Made by a program: the position numbers and the translations under genes. Under the pieces are notes generated by a model that did not search any database, had not been told where the DNA came from, and was given only the letters and a program-made list of their open reading frames with translations. A DNA stretch of 35,843 nucleotides, taken from IMG/VR virus record IMGVR_UViG_3300025943_000008, positions 1 to 35,843 of that record. One strand, given 5' to 3'. Positions within the stretch are counted from its first letter, which is position 1, and every line of letters starts with the position of its first letter. Of this stretch, positions 11,832-35,740 are shown piece after piece. This DNA is from a virus (lineage: Duplodnaviria; Caudoviricetes).

Positions 11832-11833
11832 GT

Positions 11834-11862: not shown

Positions 11863-11881
11863 GTATGCGGAGGATAAAATC

Positions 11882-15326: not shown

Positions 15327-15339
15327 GATAAATCCTCCA

Positions 15340-18161: not shown

Positions 18162-18162
18162 A

Positions 18163-18654: not shown

Positions 18655-19850
18655 GGCTCAACCATTTCCCCCGCCGCGTATAATGTCGGCGGAACTATTT
18701 TGAGTATGGCGCTTGATTCTTCGCGCGATGAAGTAAACTCAACATCAGTGATCAAAAATGTAAAGCCATTTTTTACCAGTAAGGTCGGCGAAATTATTGT
18801 GACAAGCGAATTTGCTTCCCATAATTTGCCATTTGGCGCGTACCACGTATTTACCGGAAATGGTATATCCAGCGATTCAGCTGCTGTTTTATTTTTGCGC
18901 CATTCCGCCGCTGATTTGGCGTTACCCGGTATATCATCAGACGCGTTAAATACTAATAGTCGCGGCGATTTGACTGTCAGATCTGTGGCGACTCCGGTTT
19001 TTGACGCATTTTTTGAATGTGCCGATTGTGCTATGGCTTTGTATGTCGCATAACGTTTTCGGCCTATAAATGACGCAACATATTGTTCCGCGATATAGCT
19101 TCCATCCTCTGTTATTGTACCTACGGATTCACCGTTAATATTTGCCGTTGTGATGAGCAAGTCTCCATGTTTTGTACATGATAATATGACGCCGCGCTGT
19201 TTTGCGAGTGCGACAAGATGATCAAATATTTTTTCAGTTGGTTTTGCGCATACGCGGGGGAATTTTTTTTCCTCTTTTATGAGTTTTGATTTATACGTGG
19301 GAACATATTTTATATCTTTATTTCCAAATTGCAATCCGGTATAATTTTTATCGTTTTGTTTTGCGGTTTGCCATTTATACCCCGTCATAACAACTTTTCT
19401 GCGTGTCTCATTTATTTTTTCAGCCGCATCAGGTCCGACAATAACCTGTATCCCGTACGGTTCACATTGTTGTTTACATCGCTCAGATAATGTGACGTTG
19501 TTCATTTCATACGGCGGATATATTGTTGAGTCAATTATATTAGCAATTTTGCTCCACCCATCAAGTTTTTTTGTACGGCCCCTGTTGTCAATGTTATGCG
19601 ATACGTCATACAAGGTCGATTCATTTTGCAATTGTCCGCCCAAATAAATAGCCGCGTTGGAATATTTATAAGGCATTGTAATTTTGTCAAGTTCAGGATC
19701 AAGTCCCTCTTGCCAAGGGATTACCGCCGTCCATCCGTCCGCGCCGTGGTCAAATGATCGGCGAAGCGATAACGTATCAAATATTATTTCTCGGCCCTCA
19801 ATAATAAGAGTGGCCTCGTTTTGCCCTTTGTTTGGCAGAGTGTCAGACAT
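18645..19850 (-). CDS. Baseplate hub (Mu gp44/gpP-like)
   Basis: Position, size, C-terminal WYAPNGKLWEAN..V.I motif. Confidence 0.8.
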   Translation of the reverse strand: MSDTLPNKGQNEATLIIEGREIIFDTLSLRRSFDHGADGWTAVIPWQEGLDPELDKITMPYKYSNAAIYLGGQLQNESTLYDVSHNIDNRGRTKKLDGWSKIANIIDSTIYPPYEMNNVTLSERCKQQCEPYGIQVIVGPDAAEKINETRRKVVMTGYKWQTAKQNDKNYTGLQFGNKDIKYVPTYKSKLIKEEKKFPRVCAKPTEKIFDHLVALAKQRGVILSCTKHGDLLITTANINGESVGTITEDGSYIAEQYVASFIGRKRYATYKAIAQSAHSKNASKTGVATDLTVKSPRLLVFNASDDIPGNAKSAAEWRKNKTAAESLDIPFPVNTWYAPNGKLWEANSLVTIISPTLLVKNGFTFLITDVEFTSSREESSAILKIVPPTLYAAGEMVEPWS

Positions 19851-21120
19851 ATATCACGACCTCCCGGCCAGCAGGGAGGATCAAAATATCTTTGCCGTAT
19901 AAATTGTTTGATTGCAAAAATAATTTATAGTTAGCATCATCGTCTCCGAGTGACCCATATTCGGTAACTGTTATTTCAATCGGAGACCTTGTTTTTTTAA
20001 GAGTAAAACGTTTTTCAGTTTTAAGGTTAAAAAATTGACTGGTTAAGTAAATCATCGTTGATGAAAATAATTTTTGAAGCGACGTGTATGATTGCATTTG
20101 CGAAAAATATTGTTTGTCGATATCAAGATCAGTAAAATTAGACTGTACATCTTCAATTGCGGCTATCATGCCGTTAAAAATTGCTGTTATGTCATCCATC
20201 GCCGCGATAATTTCAGACCGCACGGTAAAATCAGATGTTACAATAATGCGACAAATGGAAATCAAAATTGCCATGATCCCGAACTCTTGAAAAATAGCCT
20301 TGTTATAATCTTCCGGGGTATTGCTCGGCGGTGATAAATTTGTTACAGACTCGGAAAAATCTTCATACGCTGAAAATCTTGCGGTAAAATCGCTACTTGA
20401 TTCAAGCGGGATAGCAATCACATCGATAAGCGCCTGACACATTAAATCAATGGTGTCTTCGTCACTTGCATCAGATTGAAATTGCGTAACCAATAATGAT
20501 AAGCTGCTTTTTGCCGATAACCACGCATCATTTATTATTGCGTCTGTAGCTGACAAATTTTTTAGATCATTTGCAAGTCCTGAAATTTTGTTGATCATAT
20601 TTGCGGCGGCTTGCACTGCGGCGTAAAGATCGGAACGCAATTGTTTTGCCTGTGCAATTGAGTCTTCTATAACTGCAAGAACGTTTGATAACGTTTGCGT
20701 AATAGATTCTTGTGCGGATATCGTTGTCTCAATATTGGCCGGTTCAAACATCACCAGATCGCATTGCGTGAAATTTCCGTTTTCAACGGGTTGGATGTCT
20801 TCCTCAAAAGAAACAAGTTGGAGATTTAGAGTGCCTTTTGTGGGGTGTATAACTATCCATACACCTCTTTCTTTTTTGCATGACTCAATAAAAGATTCAG
20901 CTTCTTTATGATGATTTAACCCTTGAAAAAATATTGTTAACGGATATTGAATTGATTTTACTCCGAGATCCTGAACAATAGTCCCGTTAAAATTTGGCGG
21001 ATCAAATATACCGAGCTTGCGTTCGCCTGTACGCTTCCCGCCTTTCCATAACGCTGAAAATTCATTCCCATCCGGCGAGGTAAACTCAATAGTATCGCGT
21101 GTATCTGATTTCCAACTCAT
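19843..21120 (-). CDS. Mu gpN-like DNA circularisation / tail initiator protein
   Basis: MSWK, VQDLG and IHPTKG N-terminal motifs; LysM-like C-terminus; follows the TMP. Confidence 0.8.
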   Translation of the reverse strand: MSWKSDTRDTIEFTSPDGNEFSALWKGGKRTGERKLGIFDPPNFNGTIVQDLGVKSIQYPLTIFFQGLNHHKEAESFIESCKKERGVWIVIHPTKGTLNLQLVSFEEDIQPVENGNFTQCDLVMFEPANIETTISAQESITQTLSNVLAVIEDSIAQAKQLRSDLYAAVQAAANMINKISGLANDLKNLSATDAIINDAWLSAKSSLSLLVTQFQSDASDEDTIDLMCQALIDVIAIPLESSSDFTARFSAYEDFSESVTNLSPPSNTPEDYNKAIFQEFGIMAILISICRIIVTSDFTVRSEIIAAMDDITAIFNGMIAAIEDVQSNFTDLDIDKQYFSQMQSYTSLQKLFSSTMIYLTSQFFNLKTEKRFTLKKTRSPIEITVTEYGSLGDDDANYKLFLQSNNLYGKDILILPAGREVVIYV

Positions 21121-22685
21121 TAGTTGGCCCCCGCCATTTCCATATTCACGCGCGCGCCACGTCGCGGCGACACTTCGGCCTTTGATCCTGGATTTGCATT
21201 ATACAGATTTACGCGTACATTATTATTATTACGGATTTCCGCTTCGGCTTTATTTGGTGCCTGATATTGCGTGTTTTTTTCATTTGCAGGAGCATATTTT
21301 TTGAGAAAATCAGGGGTCGCATCAACTCCGGTTTTTGTTTGTAATTCTCGGAATGTTTTTTTGTTGACCTCATAAGTTAATTTTCCCATGCCCTCTAAAA
21401 AACCTTTGGTTTTAAATGTGTCCCACGCCTCAGATAATGCTTTTAACATCCCAATAACTGCGCCTAACGTTCCCATTGTATTGACTTGTGATTGTGTCCA
21501 TTGATCCCAATTAGCGATGATTCCGGGAAGTTCCGTTGCTAAAAATGTAATTGCGGCTATAAGTGCAAACCACGGCATCGCTTTTGTAGCAATATTTAAA
21601 GCTTTTTGCGCAAATTCCCATTTTTGGATTGCTGATACTACATTGCTGATAGTCCCTGGATATGTTTTCAATGTTTCCAACAATCCAAATGCTTTCCATA
21701 ACTGCGTAAATGCGATCACGCTTCGGAGCCCCTTTGAAAATAGAAAAAATCCTTTTGCGATTGTAAAAACAACCTTGAGCCCCGCAATTGACATCACTAT
21801 ATACGGCAACAACGGCGCGAGTTTTGTAATTATTTTTAAAATTGGCGGCAACGCTTTTGTAAATGGCGGCAATATTTTTAAAACAAATTCGAGTAACGAT
21901 TTTTTAAGCGGAACTAATTGTTCGCCCACTAACTCCATGGCGTCACCGATTTCATTTTTTGCCCCTATTTCCATCCCGGCAGCAGTTTTACGCAATGCAA
22001 CGTTTGTTCCGCCATACAATTTATTTATTTCTTTTAACAAATATGCTTGAGCTTTTTCGCGCCCCTCGGTCCGCTGCATAACCTTAATCATATTTTCTTG
22101 CTGTTCGGTAAATTGTATCCCACGTCGACGCAACGCAGTCATACCGCGAGCCGGATCGTCCATCGCTTTTCCAAGCATGATTGTAACACCTTGCAATTGC
22201 TCGGAAGACGCTTTAACTCCATACAGTTTCGCGGTTATATCCATAGCCGCACCCTGCATTTCGTTAAAATTCTTTTTCGTCACCGATCCGAAAGTCAATA
22301 ATTGCGTTGTAACATTTTGCAAAATAGCTTCGTCGCCGAATATGCCTATTTTTTGCCAATCAGAGGCCATATTTTGAAATTGTTTTGATGTCGTCCCGAT
22401 TGCGTTATTTGTAGATTTCAATCCCGCTTCTAAATTTGCAACCGCCGTCTCTTGCTCATGCCATGCCTCAATGGATGAATTGGCAAATTTCAATACACCA
22501 GCCGCACCTAACACAGGTAGATATCCCTTTATCCCGCCTAAAAAACTATCGCTTGCCTTATTGAGTCGCGCAAATATGGCAGATCCGCGACGCGAAAATT
22601 TATCAGCGGCCGCACCCATGCGCCCAAATGTTGCAGACACTCTGTCAACCGCTGTAAATTGTGTTCTTACTGCCATATCCGGCAT
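21120..22685 (-). CDS. Tape measure protein (521 aa)
   Basis: TAVDRVS N-terminus, LGKAMDDP..G..AL.R.G motif, hydrophobic middle; follows the chaperones. Confidence 0.85.
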   Translation of the reverse strand: MPDMAVRTQFTAVDRVSATFGRMGAAADKFSRRGSAIFARLNKASDSFLGGIKGYLPVLGAAGVLKFANSSIEAWHEQETAVANLEAGLKSTNNAIGTTSKQFQNMASDWQKIGIFGDEAILQNVTTQLLTFGSVTKKNFNEMQGAAMDITAKLYGVKASSEQLQGVTIMLGKAMDDPARGMTALRRRGIQFTEQQENMIKVMQRTEGREKAQAYLLKEINKLYGGTNVALRKTAAGMEIGAKNEIGDAMELVGEQLVPLKKSLLEFVLKILPPFTKALPPILKIITKLAPLLPYIVMSIAGLKVVFTIAKGFFLFSKGLRSVIAFTQLWKAFGLLETLKTYPGTISNVVSAIQKWEFAQKALNIATKAMPWFALIAAITFLATELPGIIANWDQWTQSQVNTMGTLGAVIGMLKALSEAWDTFKTKGFLEGMGKLTYEVNKKTFRELQTKTGVDATPDFLKKYAPANEKNTQYQAPNKAEAEIRNNNNVRVNLYNANPGSKAEVSPRRGARVNMEMAGAN

Positions 22686-22860
22686 TATTTTATTAACCCC
22701 GCTTTTTTTGCGGCCTCAATATCTGCATTGATCATCGATTCATGACATAGGTCATAAAATTTCAATTCATGGTATGGCATTTCTCGTATAACGTTCACCG
22801 GCTGATGCCTCCGAAACATGTCCCACATCATTTGGCCTATTTTGTCTAACACGACAAAAA
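22685..22860 (-). CDS. -1 frameshift extension of the tail assembly chaperone (G-T-like)
   Basis: Open -1 frame from the slippery site to the TMP start; EMPYHELKFY motif typical of T segments. Confidence 0.7.
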
Positions 22861-23322
22861 AATGGAACCAAGCACCTCGCAAAGGGAAAGATCAACGGAT
22901 TTTAGCTTTGCGATACCGTCAGAGCCTACATTCGATAGCGTACCCATGACCTCGTATATTTTGCCGTGCGCGTCATTTGCTTTTACGTTTGCCATTGATA
23001 GTTTTGCGCGTCCGTCAAGTTCACGATATACCAGATCATCTTCTTTCCGGCCTGATCGCATATGTTGTACAACTTTAAACGTTCCGTTTTTGTCGTCGAT
23101 TTCAAGTCTTCCGAGGCGGATAGCTTTTACCGCGCGATTGATAGAGTTTTCAAAAATCTTTTTGTAGTCTTCGTCAAAATCTTTTTCCGGATCTATTTCG
23201 TAAAAATCCAGGATGCGTTTTATTTCAGAAAAAGCAACTTCCTCGGAAAGTTTATATTTCATTTCCGAATCTGATTCGTCTCCGTCTGCGGTCAATTTTT
23301 TGAATTTATCAAAGATGTTCAT
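22846..23322 (-). CDS. Tail assembly chaperone
   Basis: Acidic 158 aa protein before the TMP, AAGGAG SD, slippery site at the 3' end. Confidence 0.75.
   Translation of the reverse strand: MNIFDKFKKLTADGDESDSEMKYKLSEEVAFSEIKRILDFYEIDPEKDFDEDYKKIFENSINRAVKAIRLGRLEIDDKNGTFKVVQHMRSGRKEDDLVYRELDGRAKLSMANVKANDAHGKIYEVMGTLSNVGSDGIAKLKSVDLSLCEVLGSIFLSC
22855..22861 (-). other. Programmed -1 frameshift site T TTT TTG
   Basis: ATT TTT TTG near the chaperone end; -1 frame reads TTT TTT GTC into the downstream ORF; same heptamer type as P2 E/E'. Confidence 0.75.
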
Positions 23323-24110
23323 GCTGAACTCCTTATAATATTATAGTCAGGAAAAATTAATGATGCAATTCCTAATCTTTCCATATCGCAAGCAGTTTTG
23401 AAAGCCACAACTTTTTTTTCGCCTTGCCTGATCCATGTTTCTTTCGGTCCAAATCTGTTTGATGCTGTACCGATAATGCAGACCTTTGATTTTTCGGTGA
23501 ATTTTCCGGTGCCTTGATATTTTTTTCCGGTTTTATCTTTTTTGTGCCCATACCCTTTACCTTCCTGTGCTTTGCAAATTAAAATATCATTCCAATTTAT
23601 CGGCATGATCGCTGTTAACTGCCTTGAATAATTATGATCACCGCCCTGATGCGGCCACCACCGAGCTTTATTTCTGTGCGACGCATGTGTAAAAAAACAT
23701 TCCGTCTGAAAAGATTTTTGATTCATCCATTTATTCGGAAATATTTTACCGTTATGACGACCTACTTTAAATACATTTACATGATCGCGTAAAGAAAGAG
23801 CAACCATTTTTTCTATGGCGTCAGCACTTACAAGCTCATCGTCGTCGTCCAGAAAATAAAACCAACCGTCATCTAACGGTATTTGTTTTAAAAGATCGTT
23901 ACAATATAGATTGTAAGTTGCGTCGCCTAACGATTTGTCGTAAATTGGGCCCTGTATTATAATGTCACCGTTTACATACTCATCGCGCGGATCATCGGTG
24001 TATATTATGGTAACGATACTTTTGTACGTCTGCTCCTTTATCGTCTCCATCATTCTCCGAAAAAATTCGGGACGCCGTGACGTGCGAATGAGTATGTAAA
24101 CAGGCAACAT
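23319..24110 (-). CDS. GT-A fold (GT2-like) glycosyltransferase
   Basis: ILIRT..R, IKEQTY, YFLDDDD (DxD) and GGD motifs; start ATG 24110 after AAGGA. Confidence 0.8.
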   Translation of the reverse strand: MLPVYILIRTSRRPEFFRRMMETIKEQTYKSIVTIIYTDDPRDEYVNGDIIIQGPIYDKSLGDATYNLYCNDLLKQIPLDDGWFYFLDDDDELVSADAIEKMVALSLRDHVNVFKVGRHNGKIFPNKWMNQKSFQTECFFTHASHRNKARWWPHQGGDHNYSRQLTAIMPINWNDILICKAQEGKGYGHKKDKTGKKYQGTGKFTEKSKVCIIGTASNRFGPKETWIRQGEKKVVAFKTACDMERLGIASLIFPDYNIIRSSA

Positions 24111-24120
24111 CCATAAATCC

Positions 24121-24504
24121 TTACTGCGCAAGAAACGCAGTGAATTCACTTATCGGAATAAGGTTAACTGAAACTTTGCCGGTTGATGAATCCCACTTGT
24201 CGGCCTTGATCCTCCCGGTCCCGCGATATGCTGATCCGTCGATCGTATATATTGCAAGGGTAAGATCCGCGAGCGAATTTGCTTTTGCGCGCAATCTCTC
24301 AAGCATCGCCGGTGTTCCTTGCAATTCAAGCCCTTCAATGGTCGGGACAATTTTTGTCATTTTCATAAGCGTATCGCCGGTTGTCGCCTGACCTTCAATG
24401 TCGTAGCTTGACGCGGAAAAATCGCCTTTGCCGTCAGCAGCAACTACAAACGGTTCACCATCTATTACGCATTTTTTTAATGTGCCTACAATATTTGATG
24501 CCAT
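24121..24504 (-). CDS. Tail tube protein (Mu-like)
   Basis: 127 aa immediately after the sheath; GGAGG SD. Confidence 0.75.
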   Translation of the reverse strand: MASNIVGTLKKCVIDGEPFVVAADGKGDFSASSYDIEGQATTGDTLMKMTKIVPTIEGLELQGTPAMLERLRAKANSLADLTLAIYTIDGSAYRGTGRIKADKWDSSTGKVSVNLIPISEFTAFLAQ

Positions 24505-26063
24505 TACGCATTACCTCCTGCTGTCAAAATTGCAATCGACGTATCAAGTGTAAGATCGGAATTTATAATCCCGCCCTCTCCCGACGGTATGAACGGACAA
24601 TAAATATCAAATCCGGTAAGACCCGATCTGAGATCAACGGTAAATCTTGTTTTCGGAATTGTTGTTTCAAAAATCCACCCGAGCGCATAAAATGCGTCAA
24701 TGAGCGCATTGACATCGTCTTTTACCGCGTCCACATCACGAGCTTTTCTGCGTGCAGTGGGATCTGTGACGGTCGCGGTATCGGTAACGATAAAAATGCC
24801 TTTCCATTTTTCGCGTTCAAAATTTGCTTTCCAGTTCGCAAGCATATTTTGTTTTATTGAGATGTTTTTCATCTGCCGGAATGAATTTGATTCAACGGCT
24901 ACCGAGTCGGGATGATAAAATGTCACGATGTTTTGCGCATATACGATACCATTTTTTACCATTGATGTCGATATACCTGATTTCACGGCGAGGTCGCGGT
25001 TATCATAATCATTTGTCCATCTGTCGGCGGTTGCCCCAGGCCATACGCCATCAAGTGCAACGTCGATATATCCGACCTGCGGCAATGTTGAATTTATCAC
25101 CGCCATAGCGCCTATCATCTGCGCTGCAATTTCTTGCGGGTGTGACTGTGATCCGGGAACACAAATCATGCCGTTGGTTCTATCTGTCGCCTTACGCGCG
25201 AGACCGACCGCAAGTGCAGCAGATAATCCACCTGATCCGGCGGTGACGTCGCCGATCAGTGAACGAAATGGGCGACCGCATTCCTTTGCATAATTACCGA
25301 CGTAATCGTTCCCGAGTCCGTTATATGTGGAAATTGCATTTAACGTTGCTGAATCGTTTCCGTATCCATGTATGAGGTTTGTAAAAAACTTTTCGTTTTG
25401 TCCGTCACCTGTTCCGAGCGCGTCGAGCGCGTCTTGTATGTCCGGAACACCAGTTCCACCAGACATATCAGTGATTGTACATGCGACGCCCGATGGCAAC
25501 GCCTCGCCTGCATTGAGAGAAAACGCAAGTGAAATATCATTACCCCACGGTCCGCCCGATTTTGATGTCAGATTAACCGCTGCGCTTGCAGCAAGAGCCG
25601 TGACAGGCAAATCATTGATTGCGTTTATAGCCGCCGCTACTGCGGTTGCGATTGCTGTATTTGCCATACCTTCCGTTGTCGCGATTGCTACGCGGTCCCC
25701 GGCAATATAAAGCGCAATGGTACCCGCGACAACGCCGGTCGACGCGGTAAAATCAAGCGATCCTGTTGCCTGATCCGGATCAGAGCCGCCCTCAAGTTGC
25801 GGGATGACCCATGTCTCCACGGTGCCCGGTTTAAACGCGGCTTTTGCAAGTCGATGGAGCATAAACCCGAATCCGGTTTTTGATGCTACATCGTTAGGCG
25901 AAAAAACTTGAAACGGCACATTTTCCGCAAGTGCTGAAAATGTTGCCTCGTCAAATGTACCAATAATAACATTTTTTTGCGCGATAACCGACGCGGATAC
26001 GGCAAGTTGTTCATTTTTTATTCCGACCGCGTTAATAGCCGCGAGTGAGTTACTTGTTATCAT
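24504..26063 (-). CDS. Tail sheath protein (Mu gpL-like)
   Basis: GTIALYIAG, AINA..DLPVTA, GGTGVPDI..AL motifs; ATG 26063 after GGAGG. Confidence 0.9.
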   Translation of the reverse strand: MITSNSLAAINAVGIKNEQLAVSASVIAQKNVIIGTFDEATFSALAENVPFQVFSPNDVASKTGFGFMLHRLAKAAFKPGTVETWVIPQLEGGSDPDQATGSLDFTASTGVVAGTIALYIAGDRVAIATTEGMANTAIATAVAAAINAINDLPVTALAASAAVNLTSKSGGPWGNDISLAFSLNAGEALPSGVACTITDMSGGTGVPDIQDALDALGTGDGQNEKFFTNLIHGYGNDSATLNAISTYNGLGNDYVGNYAKECGRPFRSLIGDVTAGSGGLSAALAVGLARKATDRTNGMICVPGSQSHPQEIAAQMIGAMAVINSTLPQVGYIDVALDGVWPGATADRWTNDYDNRDLAVKSGISTSMVKNGIVYAQNIVTFYHPDSVAVESNSFRQMKNISIKQNMLANWKANFEREKWKGIFIVTDTATVTDPTARRKARDVDAVKDDVNALIDAFYALGWIFETTIPKTRFTVDLRSGLTGFDIYCPFIPSGEGGIINSDLTLDTSIAILTAGGNA

Positions 26064-26064
26064 G

Positions 26065-26700
26065 CTATTCCTCCACAATATTATCGTTTACTGCGTCAAT
26101 TCCGTGGCCCTCACCAAAATCGGTTGACGTGGTAACAGTATCCGGATATATTCCGGTTTCACCGCGAATATCTTCACTCACGCGGCATGTATATTTTATA
26201 ACTGCTGTTTTTACTACAAGATTTCCGTTTTCAAGCGCGTCATGTTTTATGATGCTATCTACAAATCTGTTTGCAATTGATCCCGAATCAAGTCCGGCGT
26301 CAACGTTACGCGCATCCATCAAAATTTGAAAAACTTCTTCGATAAAATTATCGATTTTGTCATCGGCTTCCGCTGATGCTGTTTTTATCGACGCAATCGC
26401 GGCGGCTTTTTGTATATCTGATGATCCTGGATTTTCTAACACCGACAAATCGCCTTTCGCGGTTGCGGAAACTGAGAGCACTACATCAAAACTGATGTCG
26501 TGCGATACCGGTCCGTATTGTCCAGATGATCCCTTTGGGAATTGCCCCTGATCATACACAACCTGGACAAGCTGATCGATCCCCTTCATCCCTTCTGCGC
26601 TTTTGCTTTGTGTGTCATGTCCAATTACCCGGAACAATCCGAGAGATTGATCATTCAACAAATTTACAAGCGCAGTTTTTACGGTGCGAAACATCATCAT
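26065..26700 (-). CDS. Tail completion/terminator protein
   Basis: Position between the head-closure gene and the sheath. Confidence 0.55.
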   Translation of the reverse strand: MMMFRTVKTALVNLLNDQSLGLFRVIGHDTQSKSAEGMKGIDQLVQVVYDQGQFPKGSSGQYGPVSHDISFDVVLSVSATAKGDLSVLENPGSSDIQKAAAIASIKTASAEADDKIDNFIEEVFQILMDARNVDAGLDSGSIANRFVDSIIKHDALENGNLVVKTAVIKYTCRVSEDIRGETGIYPDTVTTSTDFGEGHGIDAVNDNIVEE

Positions 26701-27122
26701 GATTCTGATCCTGTTGGAATTACTGTATCATTTTCAATTGTCTGCGGCATAATTTTTATAATCCCGAGATCAGTTCCTTTTTCATAAGCGCGATCTATTG
26801 AAAATAAAAATTGTTTCATCGGTGCGCCATGCACCGGAGATGTCGCAAATCTGATAAACCATTTTTCGTTTGGTGCCGGTACGCGCGTGAGGCTTGATGT
26901 CCGCAACGTTACCGATGGTTTATCAACTACAATCGGCTCTCCGGTTTCTGGATTTTCTCCGCGCGAGTACATACGAATAGATCCTCTCAACAATTCCGTC
27001 GGGTTATTTGCGCTATATTTTTGCGTTGCCCCGTCTGGTGATGTTAATTCTATAACTGTACCGAGTTCAGATTCGATGCAATCATATAGATCCTGTTCCG
27101 CTGTCTCGCGCAGAGATTCCAT
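26697..27122 (-). CDS. Head-tail joining/closure protein (gpFII-like)
   Basis: Position after the capsid gene; size and beta-rich composition. Confidence 0.55.
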   Translation of the reverse strand: MESLRETAEQDLYDCIESELGTVIELTSPDGATQKYSANNPTELLRGSIRMYSRGENPETGEPIVVDKPSVTLRTSSLTRVPAPNEKWFIRFATSPVHGAPMKQFLFSIDRAYEKGTDLGIIKIMPQTIENDTVIPTGSES

Positions 27123-27129
27123 TATTCTC

Positions 27130-28344
27130 TTAGCTCTCCGGAGTCAACACGCCGGTAAGCGTTGCGAATGCGTCTGTATGAGTCGTCGCAAATATCGGCG
27201 CGGTTTGCGTTCTGATGTTTACAACTTTGTTTTCAGCGGCAAATGCGTCATGATAGAACATTGCCGGTGAAATAACCGCTCCCTGATTTGCCACAACGGG
27301 CATCGGGGGATTTGCCATGTTAAAACCGAACATCTCCTGGTACCATGCCATTTGCGAAGCTACAGGTGGCAGAATGTCGGATGGTCCGAAATATCTGTCG
27401 CAACGTGCGCCATAATATCCCATAAACACGGTATCCGATGGAATATAATCTTGCACGACGTTATTAGCATCTTCGTAAACTGCCACATAACTAAATAGCC
27501 AGAATTGATATCCGTTTTTAGTTCTGACCAATCCCATGCATACCGCACCACCATCTACAAGCGGTTGCAATTCAGCAGGAACCGGATTCGCGGCGGATAC
27601 CACGACAAGACTGTAATAATCTTTGTTTGCGTCTGCTTTTACTTTTATATTATCAAGATACACCGGTAATACATCTTGAGACATAAAAACAAAATTCGGT
27701 TTTATTTTCCCATAAACGAGAATTCGTTTAAACATGGTCTCCAGATCATGATTCGGATCTGAGTTTGTCTGATCCCATGCAAGCGTTCCGAGCGCGGATA
27801 TCGTCGTGGTCAATGCCGCATTACGTCGGAAGTCATAAATCAAATCGGTGTTTGTAGTCCCGATGATTGACGGCATTTTACCGGTAATGAGCGATTGCCA
27901 CGACAGATATTCAAAGGTCCGGACAAATCGGCGGATATGCTCAAGGTGTTCGTTAAGTGCCAGTTCGCGGAGACGATCAAAACGAGTGCGCTGTGCATAC
28001 GGATTTTCACCGGCGAGACGTGTCAGCAATTGCGAAACATCTATCGGCGATTTTTCTTCCATGAGCGGATACACCCTGGAAAAAGTTGAAAATTTCTGCG
28101 TCGTTCCGGTTTTGCCCGAAATATCTCGTGAGTCAGTGCCTCGGCTGATCATTGCGGCAAGTTTTCTGTTGCCTTTGATCACATCGATTTCAACGACAAG
28201 TTTATCCTCGGAGTAAACCGTTTTGCTTCCATGCGACGGATTTCCAAAAAATGATTGACCCGTGGTGTTTACGGCGATCATCTGTCGATCGTCGAAAAGC
28301 TCAGCCATATATCGGGAATACATATCTACTGCTTGTAGTGCCAT
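27130..28344 (-). CDS. Major capsid protein (lambda gpE-like)
   Basis: VEIDV..G.RKLA, R..EY...Q.L.TGK and QTAP motifs; follows the decoration gene; AGGAGG SD. Confidence 0.88.
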   Translation of the reverse strand: MALQAVDMYSRYMAELFDDRQMIAVNTTGQSFFGNPSHGSKTVYSEDKLVVEIDVIKGNRKLAAMISRGTDSRDISGKTGTTQKFSTFSRVYPLMEEKSPIDVSQLLTRLAGENPYAQRTRFDRLRELALNEHLEHIRRFVRTFEYLSWQSLITGKMPSIIGTTNTDLIYDFRRNAALTTTISALGTLAWDQTNSDPNHDLETMFKRILVYGKIKPNFVFMSQDVLPVYLDNIKVKADANKDYYSLVVVSAANPVPAELQPLVDGGAVCMGLVRTKNGYQFWLFSYVAVYEDANNVVQDYIPSDTVFMGYYGARCDRYFGPSDILPPVASQMAWYQEMFGFNMANPPMPVVANQGAVISPAMFYHDAFAAENKVVNIRTQTAPIFATTHTDAFATLTGVLTPES

Positions 28345-28360
28345 GTATGACTACCTCCTG

Positions 28361-28810
28361 TTAATTCTCAAGTTCGTCGAGGGAATTTGTATCCTCGATG
28401 ATTATGCCGACTTCACGCAAAACCATTTCGGCTGTGCGCTCGGATATTGTTGATGGATCACAAACGGAATCTGCGGATTGTGTGTCTGCATCCCATTCAA
28501 TCAAATCGCCATTAACCGTACATCCCTGCCCGATGAGAATCGGAACATCTTCGACATCTGCTGCCGCTAGTGTTGCAACCGCGATGTCTTCACCCATGTA
28601 AATACCTTTTGGGAGTGATGCGCCGGTTACAAGGTTAAGCGCAACAAACGGAGTCCATTTTTTACTGTCCGCAATTTGAGCCATGACAGTATATTTTTTG
28701 AGTATGGTTGCACGTTGTGCATCCGTTACGATAGTCTGATTTTTTACAACACCACGCCCCGATATGATAAACGGTTTATTCGTAATTGTTCCAGATACTT
28801 GTACTGCCAT
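28361..28810 (-). CDS. Head decoration protein (gpD-like)
   Basis: Between protease and capsid; TVMAQ, P.GI and LREVGI pattern. Confidence 0.75.
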   Translation of the reverse strand: MAVQVSGTITNKPFIISGRGVVKNQTIVTDAQRATILKKYTVMAQIADSKKWTPFVALNLVTGASLPKGIYMGEDIAVATLAAADVEDVPILIGQGCTVNGDLIEWDADTQSADSVCDPSTISERTAEMVLREVGIIIEDTNSLDELEN

Positions 28811-28812
28811 GA

Positions 28813-29229
28813 TTATTTCCTCCCAATGCCGAGACGTTCCTTGTCTCGTTTCAATTCGGCCTGAAAATCTGCCTCGGTCTGTATCGCGCCACTCAGTTGT
28901 CCTGTTGCCCGTCCGAGTTCAGCATGTCCGCCGGTTGCGGCTGATTCGGCCTGAGCAGCGTTAGACGCTTGCATTTCTTTGATCATGTCCGCGCTAGAAA
29001 CAAGTGCGTCAAGTGCGTCCATTGTTTTTTCGCCTTTAATGACCTTTACAGCCATTACGCCTATCTGGTCCGGATAATTTTTGTTGCCGATAAATGCCGA
29101 GGCTTTATCTGCCATCGCGCGCATATCAGTTTTCCCTTTTTCATAACCCGCCTTTTCTGCGTCTTCAAGTTTTTTGTTGAATTCACTTTTCGCGGCGGGG
29201 TTTTGTGCAAGAAGCTCATCAAGATTCAT
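28813..29229 (-). CDS. Nested in-frame scaffolding protein (Nu3-like, 138 aa)
   Basis: CGGAGGTTGCAAGC-ATG at Met230 (MNLDELLAQNP) after a low-complexity linker. Confidence 0.7.
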   Translation of the reverse strand: MNLDELLAQNPAAKSEFNKKLEDAEKAGYEKGKTDMRAMADKASAFIGNKNYPDQIGVMAVKVIKGEKTMDALDALVSSADMIKEMQASNAAQAESAATGGHAELGRATGQLSGAIQTEADFQAELKRDKERLGIGRK

Positions 29230-29916
29230 GCTTGCAACCTCCGAAATATTTTTTCCCGCGTTGGCGGGGGTTTTGCTTTTATCTGTAATATTTAGCATGG
29301 CTGCGGCCCTTGCTATATCAGTTTTTGCGTTTTCATGCGTTTTCATTTTATCAACTAACGCTGTAAACGATATTTTTGATCTTGCCAAGGCCGAGGTTTT
29401 GTTTTCCTTTTCATCAGTTTTAATTATTTCATCAACAAATCCTGCTTCTTTTATTTCGTCACCGAATAACCATGTCGTGGAGTCCATCATCTCTCGGATT
29501 TCTTTTTTTGATTTACCAGTTTTTTCTACATATTTATCCGCGAGCAAGTCGGCAAGTCCTGCAAGTATTGATGCTTGCTGTTCCATTTCTCTATAATCGC
29601 CCCATGCAAAATTAGAGGGATTATGGATCATAAATACGGCGTTATCTTCCGCCGCCACAAGATCAAACGCTTCGTTAACCGCTTCATAAGTTCCCATCGA
29701 TGCGACAAGGCCCTTGAGCGTTATCATATTTTGTGATTTTGGATTATCTCGTTTGTAATCGCGGAAAATATTGTAAATCTCAAGCCCTTCTTCAACAAAA
29801 CCGCCAGGGGTCGCAAGATGCACGTCAAGATCTTCGCCATTTGTAGGCAATTGCGCTCTTAACCAGTTCGGCGTTAATTCCATTCCGATTGCGCCGCTCA
29901 TCACAATTTTTTTCAT
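28813..29916 (-). CDS. ClpP-type prohead protease with C-terminal scaffold
   Basis: TPGG.V.EG, ASMG (Ser), MIHNP (His), TWL..E..EAGFVD motifs. Confidence 0.92.
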   Translation of the reverse strand: MKKIVMSGAIGMELTPNWLRAQLPTNGEDLDVHLATPGGFVEEGLEIYNIFRDYKRDNPKSQNMITLKGLVASMGTYEAVNEAFDLVAAEDNAVFMIHNPSNFAWGDYREMEQQASILAGLADLLADKYVEKTGKSKKEIREMMDSTTWLFGDEIKEAGFVDEIIKTDEKENKTSALARSKISFTALVDKMKTHENAKTDIARAAAMLNITDKSKTPANAGKNISEVASMNLDELLAQNPAAKSEFNKKLEDAEKAGYEKGKTDMRAMADKASAFIGNKNYPDQIGVMAVKVIKGEKTMDALDALVSSADMIKEMQASNAAQAESAATGGHAELGRATGQLSGAIQTEADFQAELKRDKERLGIGRK

Positions 29917-29927
29917 TCGTCTCCTAT

Positions 29928-29969
29928 AACAAAAAAGCCCGTACCGGAGTTAACCAGTACGGGCTTTTT
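29928..29969 (-). terminator. Strong intrinsic terminator upstream of the protease/capsid genes
   Basis: AAAAAGCCCGTAC-TGG-TTAACT-CCG-GTACGGGCTTTTT-TGTT. Confidence 0.9.
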
Positions 29970-30003
29970 AGAAATCTCAAAATGAGGCTAAAAAGAAATC
30001 CGC
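29959..30003 (-). promoter_or_regulatory. Putative antiterminator hairpin overlapping the terminator 5' arm
   Basis: GCGG[ATTT]CTTTTTAG[C]CTCA-TTT-TGAG[ATTT]CTAAAAAG[C]CCGT. Confidence 0.65.
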
Positions 30004-30144
30004 TTAAAATTCGATACTTTCGGATTTGATTTTTTTAATCGCGCGAATTCCTCCGCAGTTAAATTTCAACATGATTTCGCCGGTATATTTCTCATCAATC
30101 AATTTTTTTATTATTTTCATTATGCGCGAAATATTGTCAATCAT
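30004..30144 (-). CDS. Small basic protein (46 aa, MIDNISRIMKIIKKLIDEKYTGEIMLKFNCGGIRAIKKIKSESIEF), DUF2292/YezD-like from memory; not in the ORF track
   Basis: ATGA overlap with the upstream stop; helix plus YTGEI.L.F..G.I beta-hairpin pattern. Confidence 0.7.
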   Translation of the reverse strand: MIDNISRIMKIIKKLIDEKYTGEIMLKFNCGGIRAIKKIKSESIEF

Positions 30145-30350
30145 TTTTTATAACCTTCGCGACCCTCAAGAAATCCGGCAATTTTGCTGACATCTGATTG
30201 GATATTGCTGATCCCTCGTTTTATCTCGGATATATCATCGCGCGCGTCTTTTGCGTCCTTACATGCGGTATTTGCTTTTCCTTCAAGACGGACCAACCAC
30301 GCAACGGCACCGACCAATACCACCCCTGCGGAAATTGCAGCTTCAATCAT
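30141..30350 (-). CDS. Small membrane protein, one TM plus coiled coil (holin-like candidate)
   Basis: N-terminal hydrophobic helix, heptad segment, basic tail. Confidence 0.6.
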   Translation of the reverse strand: MIEAAISAGVVLVGAVAWLVRLEGKANTACKDAKDARDDISEIKRGISNIQSDVSKIAGFLEGREGYKK

Positions 30351-31068
30351 AATTTGCCCCGCTATTTATTTTTTTATTCCATGGTATCCGCCCTTGTAGT
30401 GCAATAGACATTTTTCTTTTTGATTCTTCGGAATGTTTTTTACCATACATTCCATTATTTTCACCCGACGTCAATTTGCCGTTAAAATTAGGATTTTTTT
30501 CTCCGATCCATTTTTTTTTAGCTTTTAGTTTATCAGATATTATAATTTTTGATGTTTCTGGAAATTTTTTGCCCTTCATGGGAGATCCGCGCCTTAATAT
30601 CGCTTCTCTAAGTTTTATTTTTGTTTCTTCAGAATATATATTTGTTTTGCCCTTGTTCCATGGCACCATGCTTCGGCCATACATCGGATTCTTATTTCCT
30701 GCGCATTTGCCCTTATTTGCTTTTGATATTTTTTCTTTCGCTTTTTCTGATAAACAAAATCCCGACATCCCCTCCCCTCCGTCGGTTGAATTATAACATT
30801 TAGTTATTTTTCTATATTCAGAAATATAAAATTTTTCCAGATTATTTAATTCTTCTCTCGAATAAGCCCGCGCCAATATCTTCCATCCAAAATTATCCCA
30901 TCCATATTTTCTAATAGCATGGTAAAAAAAATGGTTTATGTTTTTCTTAAACGCATCATGTTTGTGCCTTATTTTCCTGTTTTCAAGACTATAAATGGTT
31001 TGGCCTATATAAACATGATTGTTTGTTATATTTTCGGCTTTATAAATAATACCATTGAATTCATTCAT
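30343..31068 (-). CDS. Free-standing GIY-YIG homing endonuclease with NUMOD3-type repeats
   Basis: GIIY...VYIGQT, R...H, LE..YI, YN...GG; repeated SEETK.K / NPMYG / HSEESKRKMS. Confidence 0.93.
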   Translation of the reverse strand: MNEFNGIIYKAENITNNHVYIGQTIYSLENRKIRHKHDAFKKNINHFFYHAIRKYGWDNFGWKILARAYSREELNNLEKFYISEYRKITKCYNSTDGGEGMSGFCLSEKAKEKISKANKGKCAGNKNPMYGRSMVPWNKGKTNIYSEETKIKLREAILRRGSPMKGKKFPETSKIIISDKLKAKKKWIGEKNPNFNGKLTSGENNGMYGKKHSEESKRKMSIALQGRIPWNKKINSGANYD

Positions 31069-32716
31069 CTTGCTTATCTTCTTTGTTTACGTTATCTGAA
31101 TTTTGTTTATTACCCCATCCCCATGGAGGTTGTGGTAACTCTGCATATTGTCTATTCAATTTTGCTCTGTTGGATTTTCCTGAACTTCCGTTGTAATCTC
31201 TTGAAATATCATCTAAGGTTTCTGCACTTAATTCAACGGCCATTTTACTTGCTTGTATCGATTTCAATGGATCAATGTTTGGCATCGGCAAACCGGCCCA
31301 TTCGCAACACAACCACGCCGCGCGGAGTAATGGATCAGACCATCCCGGCGCGGAAATATTTCCGGATGCTATTTCCTCGGACAACCAACATTCATACGTC
31401 GGATCGAGGAAATCGGATGACATTTCATTGCGCCAGTATTGCGCAACACGCCAAAATAATATCATGGTTGCGCGTGATGCCGAATAATTCTGGCTGAATT
31501 TCATGAGCAACATTTCGACCGGCATGTTTACGGACGCACAAAGATATGAGCAAAACGCATTTACGAACGCTTCATATTGCGCAGACGGTGAGGTGTCCTG
31601 TAAATATTTTAACTGATCACCTTCACGCAGGTTAAAAATACCCACGCCCGGCGCGGTCATAGTCGCTTCCGGATGCGCTTCATAATTGACGCGGGGCTCT
31701 GTGTCAACCGTGGCCTCGGTCGTTAATATGTCCTCGGCGCCGGTTCCGTATGTCATCTCGGGCGGACCGGCGGCGCGGCCTTGCATCGGATTTGACGGGT
31801 CTTTCTGTGGATTTTCCACCGCCATCACATACGACGCCTGAATTATCGCTTTTTGTATTGTTGCCTGTTTAAAATTTGTGATTTCCTCAAATTCGTGGAG
31901 CGCGTGAGACAATCTCGGATATCCACGACCCTGTCCCGCATATTCAATCGTATGTCCGTGGATCATAAAAATTCGTCCGGATTTTTCTCCGCGCGCGGGG
32001 ATTGTAGAATCAGTCATCTTTCCGGTTGCCGGGTCGGTATTCCAAACTTTATACCCAACCTCGCGACCATTTGAATCCCGGATTATACCGTCATCGCAAC
32101 CGTATTGCATATATGTTGTCGTGTAATCGTATCCCCTGATTTGATTTGGATCGATAAATTCGATTTGGAGCGGATTAAACTGATCTTTGTCGCGGCCATA
32201 ATAAAATCTGACAAAAACGTCGTTATCGCGTTGCTGGAAAAATTCGTATAAATGCTGGTTTTGATAAAAATTATTTTGCCGGTTCCTCGCTGATTTTTTG
32301 GATGATGCCCATAAATGGAATCGTTGTGCCACATTATCCGCCCATGTTTCCGCCTCTTCAAGCGTCATTCCGATCACATCGGCAACCGGGGTCGGTTTGA
32401 GTTTGAGACCCGTATCAACCACCGTGTCGGTAAATCGCTCAACAATCCCGCGCGCGACGGAGCTGTCATACATGGCATCGCGTACATTTTGGCGCAATCT
32501 GAAATGGTCATGAATATTCACCAAGCGCGATGCCGATAATCCAGCGGGAAATTTTGCACCAGACCCATATGTTGCGTGACTTTGTGCGAAGCCGTTGCCT
32601 GATCCTATCGCCATAGTGATAACCGTTTTGCGCGGTGCCGGTCCGTTTACGATATAACTGCCAACCCGCGCGGCGATTTTACCGAGGTTAGATTTTATTG
32701 ACCGAATGTTTGGCAA
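31061..32716 (-). CDS. Portal protein (lambda family)
   Basis: VVDTGL, GQGRGYP and NYSASR motifs; TTG start after GGAG. Confidence 0.92.
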   Translation of the reverse strand: MPNIRSIKSNLGKIAARVGSYIVNGPAPRKTVITMAIGSGNGFAQSHATYGSGAKFPAGLSASRLVNIHDHFRLRQNVRDAMYDSSVARGIVERFTDTVVDTGLKLKPTPVADVIGMTLEEAETWADNVAQRFHLWASSKKSARNRQNNFYQNQHLYEFFQQRDNDVFVRFYYGRDKDQFNPLQIEFIDPNQIRGYDYTTTYMQYGCDDGIIRDSNGREVGYKVWNTDPATGKMTDSTIPARGEKSGRIFMIHGHTIEYAGQGRGYPRLSHALHEFEEITNFKQATIQKAIIQASYVMAVENPQKDPSNPMQGRAAGPPEMTYGTGAEDILTTEATVDTEPRVNYEAHPEATMTAPGVGIFNLREGDQLKYLQDTSPSAQYEAFVNAFCSYLCASVNMPVEMLLMKFSQNYSASRATMILFWRVAQYWRNEMSSDFLDPTYECWLSEEIASGNISAPGWSDPLLRAAWLCCEWAGLPMPNIDPLKSIQASKMAVELSAETLDDISRDYNGSSGKSNRAKLNRQYAELPQPPWGWGNKQNSDNVNKEDKQDE

Positions 32717-32991
32717 GGCGTTTTTCTCCGGAGTTTTAACGATATATGTCCCATGTTGTATAATTCGTTGATGAGGTGCGCTTCCGTGGCCTCAAGCCGT
32801 TTAATTTGGTCAAACATCGAATCCAATTGACGCCGGGTAACTCGTTGCGCACCCTCACCAGAATCGATAGAATATGTATCAACACCGGTTGCTGTCGCTG
32901 ACGTATAGGTCGTCCACATCGCGGTTAATGCGGTCTGTACTCGCGTGAGTTGTTGCTGTAATCTTGTTTTTCTGGCGCTTGCGTAGGACAT
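32695..32991 (-). CDS. Head completion protein (gpW-like)
   Basis: Between TerL and portal; helix, YSIDSG..VTR hairpin, helix. Confidence 0.7.
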   Translation of the reverse strand: MSYASARKTRLQQQLTRVQTALTAMWTTYTSATATGVDTYSIDSGEGAQRVTRRQLDSMFDQIKRLEATEAHLINELYNMGHISLKLRRKTPCQTFGQ

Positions 32992-33036
32992 AAGTTTTTA
33001 ACGCACCCCCCCTGTTAAAAGTCAAGCGTTTTTATA

Positions 33037-35034
33037 TTATGGTTGTGCCGGTTTTACCCTCACCGCCGTTTTTGCAATCATATCGTCGATCACGGTTCGG
33101 TGAGTTATTTTTTGCACCTCAGAAACAGACGCCCCCCGTTGTTTGGCGTAAAGGCGAAAATCTGTAAGCAATCCATCAAGAAAAACATCAGCCGCACACA
33201 AACACCCGACGCGGCAGTCAAGAGCTTCGTTTCTCCGCCCATGAGCCTCATACGATCCATCGGCCATTTTTTCCTCTGCGGTAAGCATATCGAAATAATG
33301 CTCGCCATAATCGGCGGGAAAATCGCAAAATCCTGGTGATTGTTCACCCCCCACATTCCGAGATATTTTTAAATTGTTATAAACCTGATTTTTGTAGTAC
33401 ACCGTTGAAATTTCATACAGCAAAATATCTTCCGACATTTTTGCCGGGCGATACCGCTTGAATGTCGAGTCTGTCAACTCATCAGCTTTTTCATTTTTTC
33501 GCCTTTGAATAGATCGACGCCCTTTTGTGGGAAACGTATTTACCCACCGTTGCGAAAATCGATATATAACGTCCGTGTTTTCGCCATCGCCTGAATCGAT
33601 AAACACTATGCTCACCGGAAATTTAAAACCGTCTTTCACGCGGGTAAAGGTTAATTTATTAACCATCGCCCACTGGTGCAACTCCTCCCATGCTCCACCA
33701 TACGGGTTTTCAATTTCACCCTCAATTTGTTTGTACAATATCGACCATGTTTTATATCCAGCGCCAATACCCAAAACTTCAAACTCAATGCGCGATGGAT
33801 TTTCAAGATCCATTTTACTCCCGCGCTGAACATCTGCGAACATAGTGAGATATAAAACACCCTCCGGCACTTCCCCCGATCGATATTGACCACGGTTCTC
33901 ATATATTTTTTCCGATTTTGGTCTAATCCCTGAATCTATAAATGGCATCCCGTCTTGATGGTTTGTAAATGTCCGCATACCGTCGGGGGTTCGTTGCGCA
34001 GAGCAAAAACTGTTCCAGTAGTCTCGCCATGAATACATTCCGATCGGCGACAATAGCGAATTGATATGAAATGACCGCCGTAAATATTCCGGCTTTGTCA
34101 TCGCCTCCCACTTTCCGCCGCGTATCATATCGTTTTTCTGGTGCTCAAATATTGCGTCATGGCAAAAATCGCAAAGATAATATATGTATTGTATCTCGCC
34201 CGCCACTTTTTCGGCTCGTAACCCATGAGATCCTTTTTCTGATCCGCGATCCAGTAATTGCAATTTACCACATAACGGACATGGCACAAGATATTCGCAT
34301 TGATCGCCGAGCATGAACCGACGATATATCGTTGATGTCTGCACTTCCGTCGGCGTGGAGCATGCTAATATTTTGCGCCGGTTACCCCATCCCTTAGTTC
34401 GCGCTTCTGCGTTTTCATCCCAATATCCCTCTCCTGTGGTAAGTAGCGGCGGAGCTGCGTCGACTTCATCTAACATCAAAATCCGGATTGAATCCGACCT
34501 CTGTGATGACGGCGATTGCGCAGACGCCATTTCCAAAAATCCACCGCTGAATAATTTTTGTCCTGACGTGTCACCGGTTCGACGTGATTTTTCGTTTTCA
34601 ACAGGTGAAATAAATTTTGATCGTAATCCGAGTGAATCGATAAGGGGTTCGAGGCGTTTGCTTGACCATTTACGTAAGAGCGCATCGGTACCAGACATAA
34701 ATAACATTGGTGCCGGACTTGCCCCGATATAATACCCGATCGTATTTTCCATGAGCGAGGTTTTCACAACCTGTGACGCAGACATAACATCAACGTGTTG
34801 TGTCGGGTTCCACGGTGAAAGACAGTCCATAATTTCAACCGCGTATTGTGTACGCCAATTTTTCCATGGACCGGGGATTGGTGTATTGTTTGGCATCACG
34901 CGGCGATTTTCTATGTATTCAGAAATATAGCGGGGAGGCCTATTTATTGGTTTATCGTCGTTGATATGTAATAGGTATTGGGCGTCAATATTTAATTCGA
35001 GGTTATTCAATTCGAAATTATTTAATTCAGACAT
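33037..35034 (-). CDS. terL: Terminase large subunit (GpA family)
   Basis: PGPW..RT.Y, SQVVKT, LDEVD, STPT, CPLC/CDFC, DVQ, FIDSG and NEALDC motifs. Confidence 0.95.
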   Translation of the reverse strand: MSELNNFELNNLELNIDAQYLLHINDDKPINRPPRYISEYIENRRVMPNNTPIPGPWKNWRTQYAVEIMDCLSPWNPTQHVDVMSASQVVKTSLMENTIGYYIGASPAPMLFMSGTDALLRKWSSKRLEPLIDSLGLRSKFISPVENEKSRRTGDTSGQKLFSGGFLEMASAQSPSSQRSDSIRILMLDEVDAAPPLLTTGEGYWDENAEARTKGWGNRRKILACSTPTEVQTSTIYRRFMLGDQCEYLVPCPLCGKLQLLDRGSEKGSHGLRAEKVAGEIQYIYYLCDFCHDAIFEHQKNDMIRGGKWEAMTKPEYLRRSFHINSLLSPIGMYSWRDYWNSFCSAQRTPDGMRTFTNHQDGMPFIDSGIRPKSEKIYENRGQYRSGEVPEGVLYLTMFADVQRGSKMDLENPSRIEFEVLGIGAGYKTWSILYKQIEGEIENPYGGAWEELHQWAMVNKLTFTRVKDGFKFPVSIVFIDSGDGENTDVIYRFSQRWVNTFPTKGRRSIQRRKNEKADELTDSTFKRYRPAKMSEDILLYEISTVYYKNQVYNNLKISRNVGGEQSPGFCDFPADYGEHYFDMLTAEEKMADGSYEAHGRRNEALDCRVGCLCAADVFLDGLLTDFRLYAKQRGASVSEVQKITHRTVIDDMIAKTAVRVKPAQP

Positions 35035-35740
35035 CTATCGGCTCCGCACCTATTGATTTTATAAATCGATCAATCTCAATTTTCACATGTGAAAGCACGG
35101 ACCACAATTCATCATCAATCGCTTTCTCCGCTTCCAATAAAACTTTTTCGTCGGTACATTTAAAAATTTTTGCAAGTTCTGGTATGGCTCTAATTTTTAC
35201 CGACATGAATTCGTTCATATCAATTTCATATAGTTTCCCGCAAAACATTCTAAGCATTTTCCGTGCAATTAATTCCCGTCGGTCATGTCTGCGTTTCTGT
35301 GATATTGATTTCACCTGTTCGTACAGTTTTATTTTTTCAACCCACGCCTTCGGGAGTGACAAAATCATTTGTGCGGTAAGCTGATTCTTTTCGAGTTTTT
35401 CTATTATTTCCGGAGGGATGACGGGGTCATTATTTTTGCCGCGTTTTGGTTCATCAAATACGACGGGGTCTTTAATCTCTGATTTTTTTTGCGCGGTAAC
35501 TTTGCCCGACTTTGATTTTTGGGCTGGTTTTTGTTCCGCAACTTTGACCGGTTTATCCTCTGATCGGGATCGCGCGTTATTCTCGTATTCGATGACTGCC
35601 GGGTCTGCAAGATCCACCTGTTTCACGCCACCGATCATTACGGTGGGAAATACCCCGTCTTTCTCGGATAAATATATCATCTGCCTGGATCGGCCTATAC
35701 GTTGCGCAAACGCTGCAAGGGTTAGATATTGTTGTGTCAT
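35027..35740 (-). CDS. terS: Terminase small subunit (Nu1-like, N-terminal HTH)
   Basis: LTLAAFAQRIGRSRQ HTH, Lys-rich linker, ELI motif and helical C-terminus; directly upstream of TerL. Confidence 0.75.
   Translation of the reverse strand: MTQQYLTLAAFAQRIGRSRQMIYLSEKDGVFPTVMIGGVKQVDLADPAVIEYENNARSRSEDKPVKVAEQKPAQKSKSGKVTAQKKSEIKDPVVFDEPKRGKNNDPVIPPEIIEKLEKNQLTAQMILSLPKAWVEKIKLYEQVKSISQKRRHDRRELIARKMLRMFCGKLYEIDMNEFMSVKIRAIPELAKIFKCTDEKVLLEAEKAIDDELWSVLSHVKIEIDRFIKSIGAEPIDV

Follow-up and report, generated by a model that had tools for sequence, protein, structure and literature searches.

A gene for a basic protein of 46 amino acids, an RNA hairpin with two internal loops and an intrinsic terminator are adjacent in a phage genome and conserved together in other phage-like loci, with stems that covary and loop bases that are fixed. 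From these comparisons we consider it likely that the 46-aa protein binds the twin-loop hairpin, probably as a dimer, and thereby antiterminates transcription into the capsid and tail genes. The sign of this regulation cannot be read from conservation. The module is apparently undescribed.

Genomic setting

We analyzed a stretch of 35,843 nucleotides, referred to as the window, from a virus record that is 72% complete. In the right half of the window the minus strand carries a lambda-type head module and a contractile tail, and the locus lies on this strand between the packaging genes and the prohead protease gene. Its features are listed below.

30141..35740 (-), upstream packaging run: putative small terminase, large terminase, 98-aa gene, portal, GIY-YIG endonuclease, 69-aa gene
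30113..30140 (-), predicted sigma70-like promoter: TTGACA 30140-30135, 16 nt, GAAAAT 30118-30113; 10 of 12 consensus matches
30004..30144 (-), 46-aa basic protein, candidate RNA-binding antiterminator (ORF, homologues, codon pattern, structure model)
29959..30003 (-), twin-loop hairpin, candidate antiterminator (ViennaRNA fold, homologues; single copy in the window)
30003-30000 with 29962-29959 (-), hairpin outer stem, 4 bp
29999-29996 (-), hairpin loop 1, AUUU, opposite C 29963
29995-29988 with 29971-29964 (-), hairpin central helix, 8 bp
29987 (-), hairpin loop 2, C, opposite AUUU 29975-29972
29986-29983 with 29979-29976 (-), hairpin apical stem, 4 bp, with apical loop UUU
29928..29969 (-), intrinsic terminator (from folding), sharing 29969-29959 with the hairpin
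29969-29965, 29964-29937 and 29936-29928 (-), terminator A tract, 11-bp core stem with a 6-nt loop, and U tract
29925-29921 (-), Shine-Dalgarno sequence AGGAG of the protease gene, outside the terminator core stem
28813..29916 (-), ClpP-type head maturation protease (PF00574; phrog_94), first gene past the terminator
13622..28810 (-), remainder of the putatively gated run: head decoration, lambda-type major capsid, tail sheath, tube, tape measure, baseplate, fibre

The first gene of the packaging run would be the small terminase, judging by position alone. The run ends with the 46-aa gene, whose ATG overlaps the stop codon of the 69-aa gene, and the major capsid gene (28344-27130, -) belongs to the run beyond the terminator. 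Among the ten strongest terminator-like sites, the next one on the minus strand after that of the locus is found only at 13595. There, a terminator-like hairpin with T tracts on both strands (13595-13615) marks the point where the plus strand replication run meets the minus strand virion run. Note also a GIY-YIG/NUMOD3 homing endonuclease gene (30343-31068, -) that lies between portal and locus and overlaps its neighbours on both sides, a weak glycosyltransferase-2 match (E 2e-4) at 23319-24149 (-), past the tail tube gene and among the tail genes, and a 421-aa ORF (11816-13081, +) whose only match, a weak one, is to the phiKZ capsid decoration family.

Two RNA folds predicted to compete

The hairpin comprises 45 nt, and its first base, 30003, directly follows the stop codon of the 46-aa ORF (TAA, 30006-30004), as the preliminary description of this DNA had stated. 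ViennaRNA returns exactly the twin-loop fold (-10.9 kcal/mol, 56% of the ensemble), so that sequence and folding agree on the two identical internal loops in opposite orientation that had been described there. The underlying tandem of GATTTCT-N4-AGCC is likewise present, in two copies 24 nt apart, a count that is weak by itself, as at least two matches with one mismatch allowed occur in 6 of 100 shuffles. Hairpins of equal stability arise in 5 of 200 shuffles, and in 16 of 2000 when the terminator arm is held fixed. In the window alone the hairpin is thus modestly unusual, and the case rests on the homologues. Comparison with Rfam gave 31 weak matches for the window, including RF02278, every one below its gathering score, and for 20 loci only a tRNA and a c-di-GMP-I riboswitch, both elsewhere in the loci.

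The terminator fold (-27.3 kcal/mol) was matched by none of 200 shuffles and heads the window's 90 hairpin-plus-U-tract sites with a core of -21.1, the runner-up reaching -14.0. The earlier claim of a strong terminator is borne out to this extent, but the 13 bp given for its stem need correction: the core stem (29964-29954 with 29947-29937) has 11 bp including one G-U pair, and A-U pairs can extend it to 16 bp. A separate terminator scan of the window did not list the site, probably because pairing with the A tract consumes the U tract as stem. An overlap with the hairpin had also been claimed, and 11 nt are indeed shared, but only six of them, GCCCGU, fall within the core stem.

In stepwise folding the hairpin forms first; the terminator core then displaces its outer stem along with loop 1, but leaves loop 2 and the central helix in place until the U tract is free. 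Hairpin and terminator are therefore predicted to be mutually exclusive, with the terminator replacing the hairpin when unaided, a default OFF state. The same holds in the 18 loci introduced below, where the terminator pair probability is 1.0 in 17 cases and 0.69 in one, the hairpin outer pair probability is close to 0 in all, and the two elements overlap by 8-11 nt. With the terminator fold winning in every one of the 18 loci, read-through would need a stabilizer.

The modest stability of the hairpin, reached by the 5 of 200 shuffles, is what one would expect if the site were a plain terminator closing the packaging run and the hairpin had arisen by chance. We find this hardly credible, given the recurrence and covariation in 17 other loci and a promoter scan that yields no site between the terminator and the protease start at 29916, a gap in which only 12 nt separate U tract and ATG.

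Recurrence in other phage-like loci

The module of protein gene, hairpin and terminator was found in 17 other phage-like loci, giving a total of 18 loci and 19 hairpins. Homologues of the 46-aa ORF, whose comparison had been proposed in the preliminary description, thus keep both the twin loops and the overlapping terminator. Two routes led to these loci. A search starting from the protein gave 12 loci, two of which, the record of the window itself and a locus that the RNA search had already yielded, were dropped; in nine of the ten new loci hairpin and terminator lie 0-10 nt past the stop codon, and in the tenth, L143, they lie 662 nt past it and before a scaffold gene, with a different ORF ending about 16 nt before the hairpin. 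The other route used an RNA pattern that specifies neither ORF nor terminator and matched 96 viral stretches. Six of these hold true hairpins, five with a family ORF directly upstream and one where the contig starts at the hairpin (L085/L116/L133, a single contig, not counted here). Locus L115 came from a further pattern, one that includes the terminator. From bacterial genomes, 99 loci were picked by a loose RNA pattern, of which the RNA model matched one and the protein profile one, in both cases L188. Chance matches of the loose DNA patterns amount to about 90 of 96, 5 of 11, 14 of 21 and 98 of 99. Two candidates, L104 and L109, were rejected for want of an ORF or of a complete hairpin.

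Locus L142 was read by eye, since a long apical insert defeats the RNA model; this insert (L142:1622-1739) contains further stem-loops, one of them again resembling the motif. When eight viral records were searched over their whole length, each showed one site, as does the window, except L080, which has two in tandem (L080:758-899). There, only the second hairpin overlaps a terminator, before the terminase genes and 64 nt from the stop codon of the small gene.

Across the set, the hairpin stem begins 0-10 nt past the stop codon in 16 of 18 loci. The protein cores share 19-81% identity (median 39%), and the loci are partly non-independent, forming 17 clusters at 70% identity and 5 at 50%; the RNA model and the 63-row protein profile also share many source loci. 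The gene downstream of the module encodes a ClpP-type protease in six loci, another protease in one, a scaffold in four, terminase genes in two, a portal or adaptor-portal in two, an excisionase-like protein in one and an unnamed product in two. Amid varying downstream genes and phage types, the hairpin has one constant neighbour, the small gene (18 of 18 loci). Judged by this comparison, the module is real, conserved and more than a product of chance.

In L007, a phage with a 40%-identical capsid protein, no module was found before the protease gene (record 50% complete), so that the gate would be optional in this phage group. The small protein is absent from five partial records with related proteases or capsid, weak evidence as these are 10-65% complete, and the RNA model found no hairpin in the partial records L001-L005 and L007. 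Note that such blanks carry little weight, because the whole-genome RNA search missed even L188's own hairpin.

These loci bear on a second reading from the preliminary description, according to which a ribosome terminating at the small ORF sets the fold by translation-coupled attenuation and the protein product is irrelevant. The short distance between stop codon and stem in most loci agrees with it, as does the different ORF that ends close to the hairpin in L143. A ribosome on the 5' arm, however, would only aid the terminator, which wins regardless of it, and the hairpins at 64 nt (the terminator-overlapping copy in L080) and 662 nt from the stop codon further weaken the idea. Moreover, such a mechanism needs no fixed loop bases, and the protein is conserved in sequence, its gene changing in a coding pattern. 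We consider it improbable in comparison with an RNA-binding function of the protein.

Covariation and fixed loop bases

In the hairpin alignment, 88.7% of the cells are paired; shuffles reach 71.1% and slid alignments no more than 57.3%. Both sides change in 13 of 16 pairs, in an alignment that was fitted to the structure and includes L109, a chance match. Next to loop 2, the pair (n=16) is G-C in eight sequences, A-U in three, U-A in three, C-G in one and unpaired in one. Outer and central helices together contain seven G-U pairs versus one A-C, which points to selection on the transcribed strand. The loops in turn are fixed in sequence. They are 3x1 or 4x1 and start with a G-C closing pair followed by A, and in the 19 hairpins 35 of 38 parsed loops read G-A-N2/3 opposite a single C, where G-A was required by the parser and, for the loci picked by RNA, also imposed by the search pattern. 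The spacing of the motifs varies with the length of the apical stem. By the measure of these substitutions, the hairpin is an RNA structure under selection.

The same data speak to the possibility that a transcription activator or a packaging factor recognizes the tandem motif as DNA, or else that the motif forms a cleavage hairpin of the RNase III type. Two direct repeats 24 nt apart with a conserved promoter-like hexamer close by would suit the former, and some late RNAs of phages contain symmetric bulged hairpins that RNase III cleaves. In a DNA site, however, the bases between the fixed motifs would not be expected to covary, nor the spacing to follow the apical stem, and the wobble pairs point to the transcribed strand; in addition, folding of the full-length RNA does not predict the hairpin. 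Either version appears very improbable to us.

The 46-aa protein and its relatives

The conserved sequence indicates that the 46-aa ORF is a real gene. In close family pairs codon changes number 500, 267 and 762 at positions 1, 2 and 3, the pairs not being independent of each other, and this third-position excess is a coding pattern that reflects a conserved protein sequence. A single-sequence search with the protein returned no match but itself, a full HMMER scan gave five relatives at 45-65% identity, and a profile search extended the family to 55 proteins. The protein has a net charge of +4, and 61 of 63 family members are positively charged; G22, G31, G32 and R34 are near-invariant. A structure model (pLDDT 88.5) shows a helix (residues 2-17) and two strands (23-29 and 32-39). 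The dimer prediction scored 0.22 against a mark of 0.42, which speaks neither for nor against a dimer, and fold searches with the model gave a best E of 2.9 in Foldseek and a best Z of 3.3 in VIA, 46 residues being a small query. A PDB sequence search with the family returned nothing clear, and no named family in Pfam, NCBIfam or PHROGs was matched by any of the 63 members. A close homologue of the protein had no match among 50,697 cultured phage records, and hence no laboratory phage with the module was found.

The CAT domain is all-beta. With a helix-strand-strand model and with PF03123 matched by none of 63 family members in Pfam, the protein is not CAT-like, in keeping with the preliminary description. 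Its label 'DUF2292/YezD-like' holds loosely: the predicted helix-strand-strand topology is the same, but none of the 63 members has a Pfam match. At the cut-off of PF10055 (22 bits) no family member matched, whereas the positive control L271 reached 66.6 bits. Profile comparisons of the family with DUF2292 by hhalign gave E values of 0.089, 0.17, 0.05 and 0.0054 at probabilities of 0.3-6.8%, with a best P of 0.005 at 7% probability, and in one such comparison 14 of 200 column shuffles scored equally high. An Atlas cluster with 23% DUF2292 members at 0.75 is a lead only. The resemblance thus consists in size, a glycine before the first strand and predicted topology, not superposed (H2-17, E23-29, E32-39 here versus H2-17, E21-28, E31-39 in a DUF2292 protein), and the differences in other conserved residues and another RNA. 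Taken together, the sequences indicate an unnamed family, perhaps a remote relative of DUF2292, and not a CAT protein.

In nine loci with true DUF2292 genes (L271-L279) the hairpin RNA model, R1, found no match. Inspection by eye shows one or two small hairpins that share a motif behind most of these genes, and in one of the nine loci (L272:1635-1740) such a hairpin overlaps a terminator that precedes a nitrite/sulfite reductase gene. It may be that DUF2292 itself acts as an antiterminator for sulfur genes; an established function for it was not found in the literature searched.

More distant relatives of the small protein (E 1e-7 to 8e-4) occur in 12 loci from bacterial genomes, and beside none of these genes did the RNA model find a match. 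A different hairpin is present in three of them and a terminator-like hairpin in two more. As the twin-loop hairpin occurs in 0 of 12, its pairing with the protein does not span the whole protein family. The three loci (L258, L266 and L269) belong to a sister protein group, in which a different bulged hairpin follows the gene and overlaps a terminator in L266 and L269. A second motif copy lies about 200 nt further in L269, and a c-di-GMP-I riboswitch lies further downstream in L258.

A predicted promoter at the small ORF

The predicted sigma70-like promoter sits within the first codons of the 46-aa ORF, with a predicted start near 30107, and taken alone this region of the window shows no enrichment of such sites. 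Across the loci, an exact TTGACA occurs near the ORF start in 13 of 18 cases, compared with 66 of 2028 background windows, and a promoter score of 10/12 is reached in 10 of 18, compared with 51 of 2028. We thus predict, from sequence comparison, that the promoter at the ORF start is a conserved part of the module, one that is absent from the preliminary description. Its predicted transcription start lies 0-5 nt before the ATG in six relatives, but inside the ORF in the window and in L139, L141, L142 and L149. With the promoter inside the ORF, the 46-aa protein of the window would come from the upstream packaging transcript, in line with the overlap of its ATG with the preceding stop codon. In L007, TTGACA stands immediately before the protease gene (L007:3330-3380), without small ORF or hairpin.

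A model for the switch

Our preferred model is the following. The 46-aa protein would bind the hairpin on the nascent RNA, probably as a dimer whose two subunits each contact one loop, and the bound hairpin would block the overlapping terminator, so that RNA polymerase proceeds into the capsid and tail genes. Being encoded upstream on the terminated transcript, the protein would accumulate past a threshold, for instance on genome copying, and open its own gate, a positive feedback. In this phage the promoter inside the ORF would produce a short attenuated leader.

Linkage alone ties the small protein to the RNA, and a host RNA-binding protein or another phage protein might be the actual ligand of an antiterminator hairpin, the small protein being otherwise employed in late development. 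The absence of the twin-loop hairpin from the 12 distant-relative loci would fit such a division, and so would the position of the predicted promoter within the ORF, as in the window and in several relatives. Nevertheless, no gene other than the small one keeps its place beside the hairpin, and a hairpin that differs from this one accompanies a sister protein group in 3 of 12 loci, as would be expected of a cognate pair; we hold a foreign ligand to be unlikely. Somewhat less probable still is that the protein binds the hairpin without causing read-through and instead acts on the short transcript, by stabilizing or processing it, or limits its own production. The hairpin does adjoin the stop codon of its own gene in most loci, and the sequence does not reveal the sign of the effect. 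But as the 3' arm of the hairpin is the 5' arm of the terminator (8-11 nt, 18 of 18), holding the former would disfavour termination, and the finished RNA is predicted to lack the hairpin.

To our knowledge, the delay of capsid synthesis in phages without a Q-, N- or activator-type gene is unexplained for most uncultured groups. If the model of a protein-stabilized hairpin is right, some 250 bases would explain it here, by an undescribed late-gene switch and with a new RNA-binding fold among the few antiterminator proteins. It would further provide a testable lead on the uncharacterized DUF2292-like microproteins, and synthetic circuits could draw on it as a very small protein-RNA switch that comes with natural variants. 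Because the two loops are strictly symmetric, a 45-nt RNA and a 46-aa peptide would suffice to test the binding model directly. A wider generalization, to which we give slightly less than an even chance, is that of a portable phage switch in which a host-type promoter, a 40-50-aa RNA-binding protein from an unnamed family and a symmetric RNA over a terminator sense copy number by positive feedback and fit any late operon. This switch would then represent one branch within a larger group of DUF2292-like microproteins, each with a cognate hairpin, and that group would be an unrecognized class of antiterminators in phages and bacteria.

Comparison with known antiterminators

Lambda N/nut and Q are phage antiterminators, and Thermus phage gp39 and conAn reportedly time phage or mobile-element genes by overriding terminators. 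With all of these the proposed switch would share gene timing by a small factor that overrides terminators, but they act on RNA polymerase and mostly on many terminators, whereas here a single terminator and a competing fold would be involved. No publication on this protein-RNA pair was found in the literature searched, chiefly open-access, which agrees with the earlier statement that no described phage system of this form was known. The small-protein family (63 members) has no Pfam match to the ANTAR or HutP families. In the portions covered of the RNA-motif catalogues PMC10690425 and PMC5737381 no account of the pair was found; the short motif strings were not found in six supplementary files of PMC10690425, a catalogue of phage RNAs whose other files may hold the motif. 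The table of RNA-binding antiterminators in a 2025 review lists, in the part consulted, only CAT, ANTAR and HutP (PMC12591593). ANTAR proteins and HutP resemble the present case in protein-dependent antitermination through repeated RNA elements, but as far as described in the part consulted they use two separate hairpins or repeats and a protein controlled by ligand or phosphorylation (PMC12591593).

The closest likeness is to BglG, SacY and LicT. According to the sections consulted of work on LicT, a CAT dimer contacts two equivalent RAT loops, and RAT and terminator overlap by 6-10 nt (PMC5393181; see also PMC7430163, likewise consulted in part). The RAT analogy drawn in the preliminary description fits the RNA geometry in this respect, with two loops and a terminator overlap of 8-11 nt versus those 6-10 nt (PMC5393181). 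As far as these sources go, both cases combine a weak hairpin, two equivalent internal loops and a 3' end that overlaps an intrinsic terminator; in both the terminator is the default winner, and a small dimeric RNA-binding unit is proposed as the stabilizer here. RAT elements measure 29-33 nt in the parts consulted, the hairpin of the window 45 nt and most of its homologues 40-50 nt, with loops 8-9 bp apart. BglG and SacY further carry two PRD domains, where the present protein is a stand-alone 46-aa ORF with an unrelated fold and no sensor part, and the BglG/SacY/LicT systems gate sugar operons, while the module described here sits behind its own gene and would gate virion genes. We therefore propose that the module works like CAT-RAT without being a member of that family.
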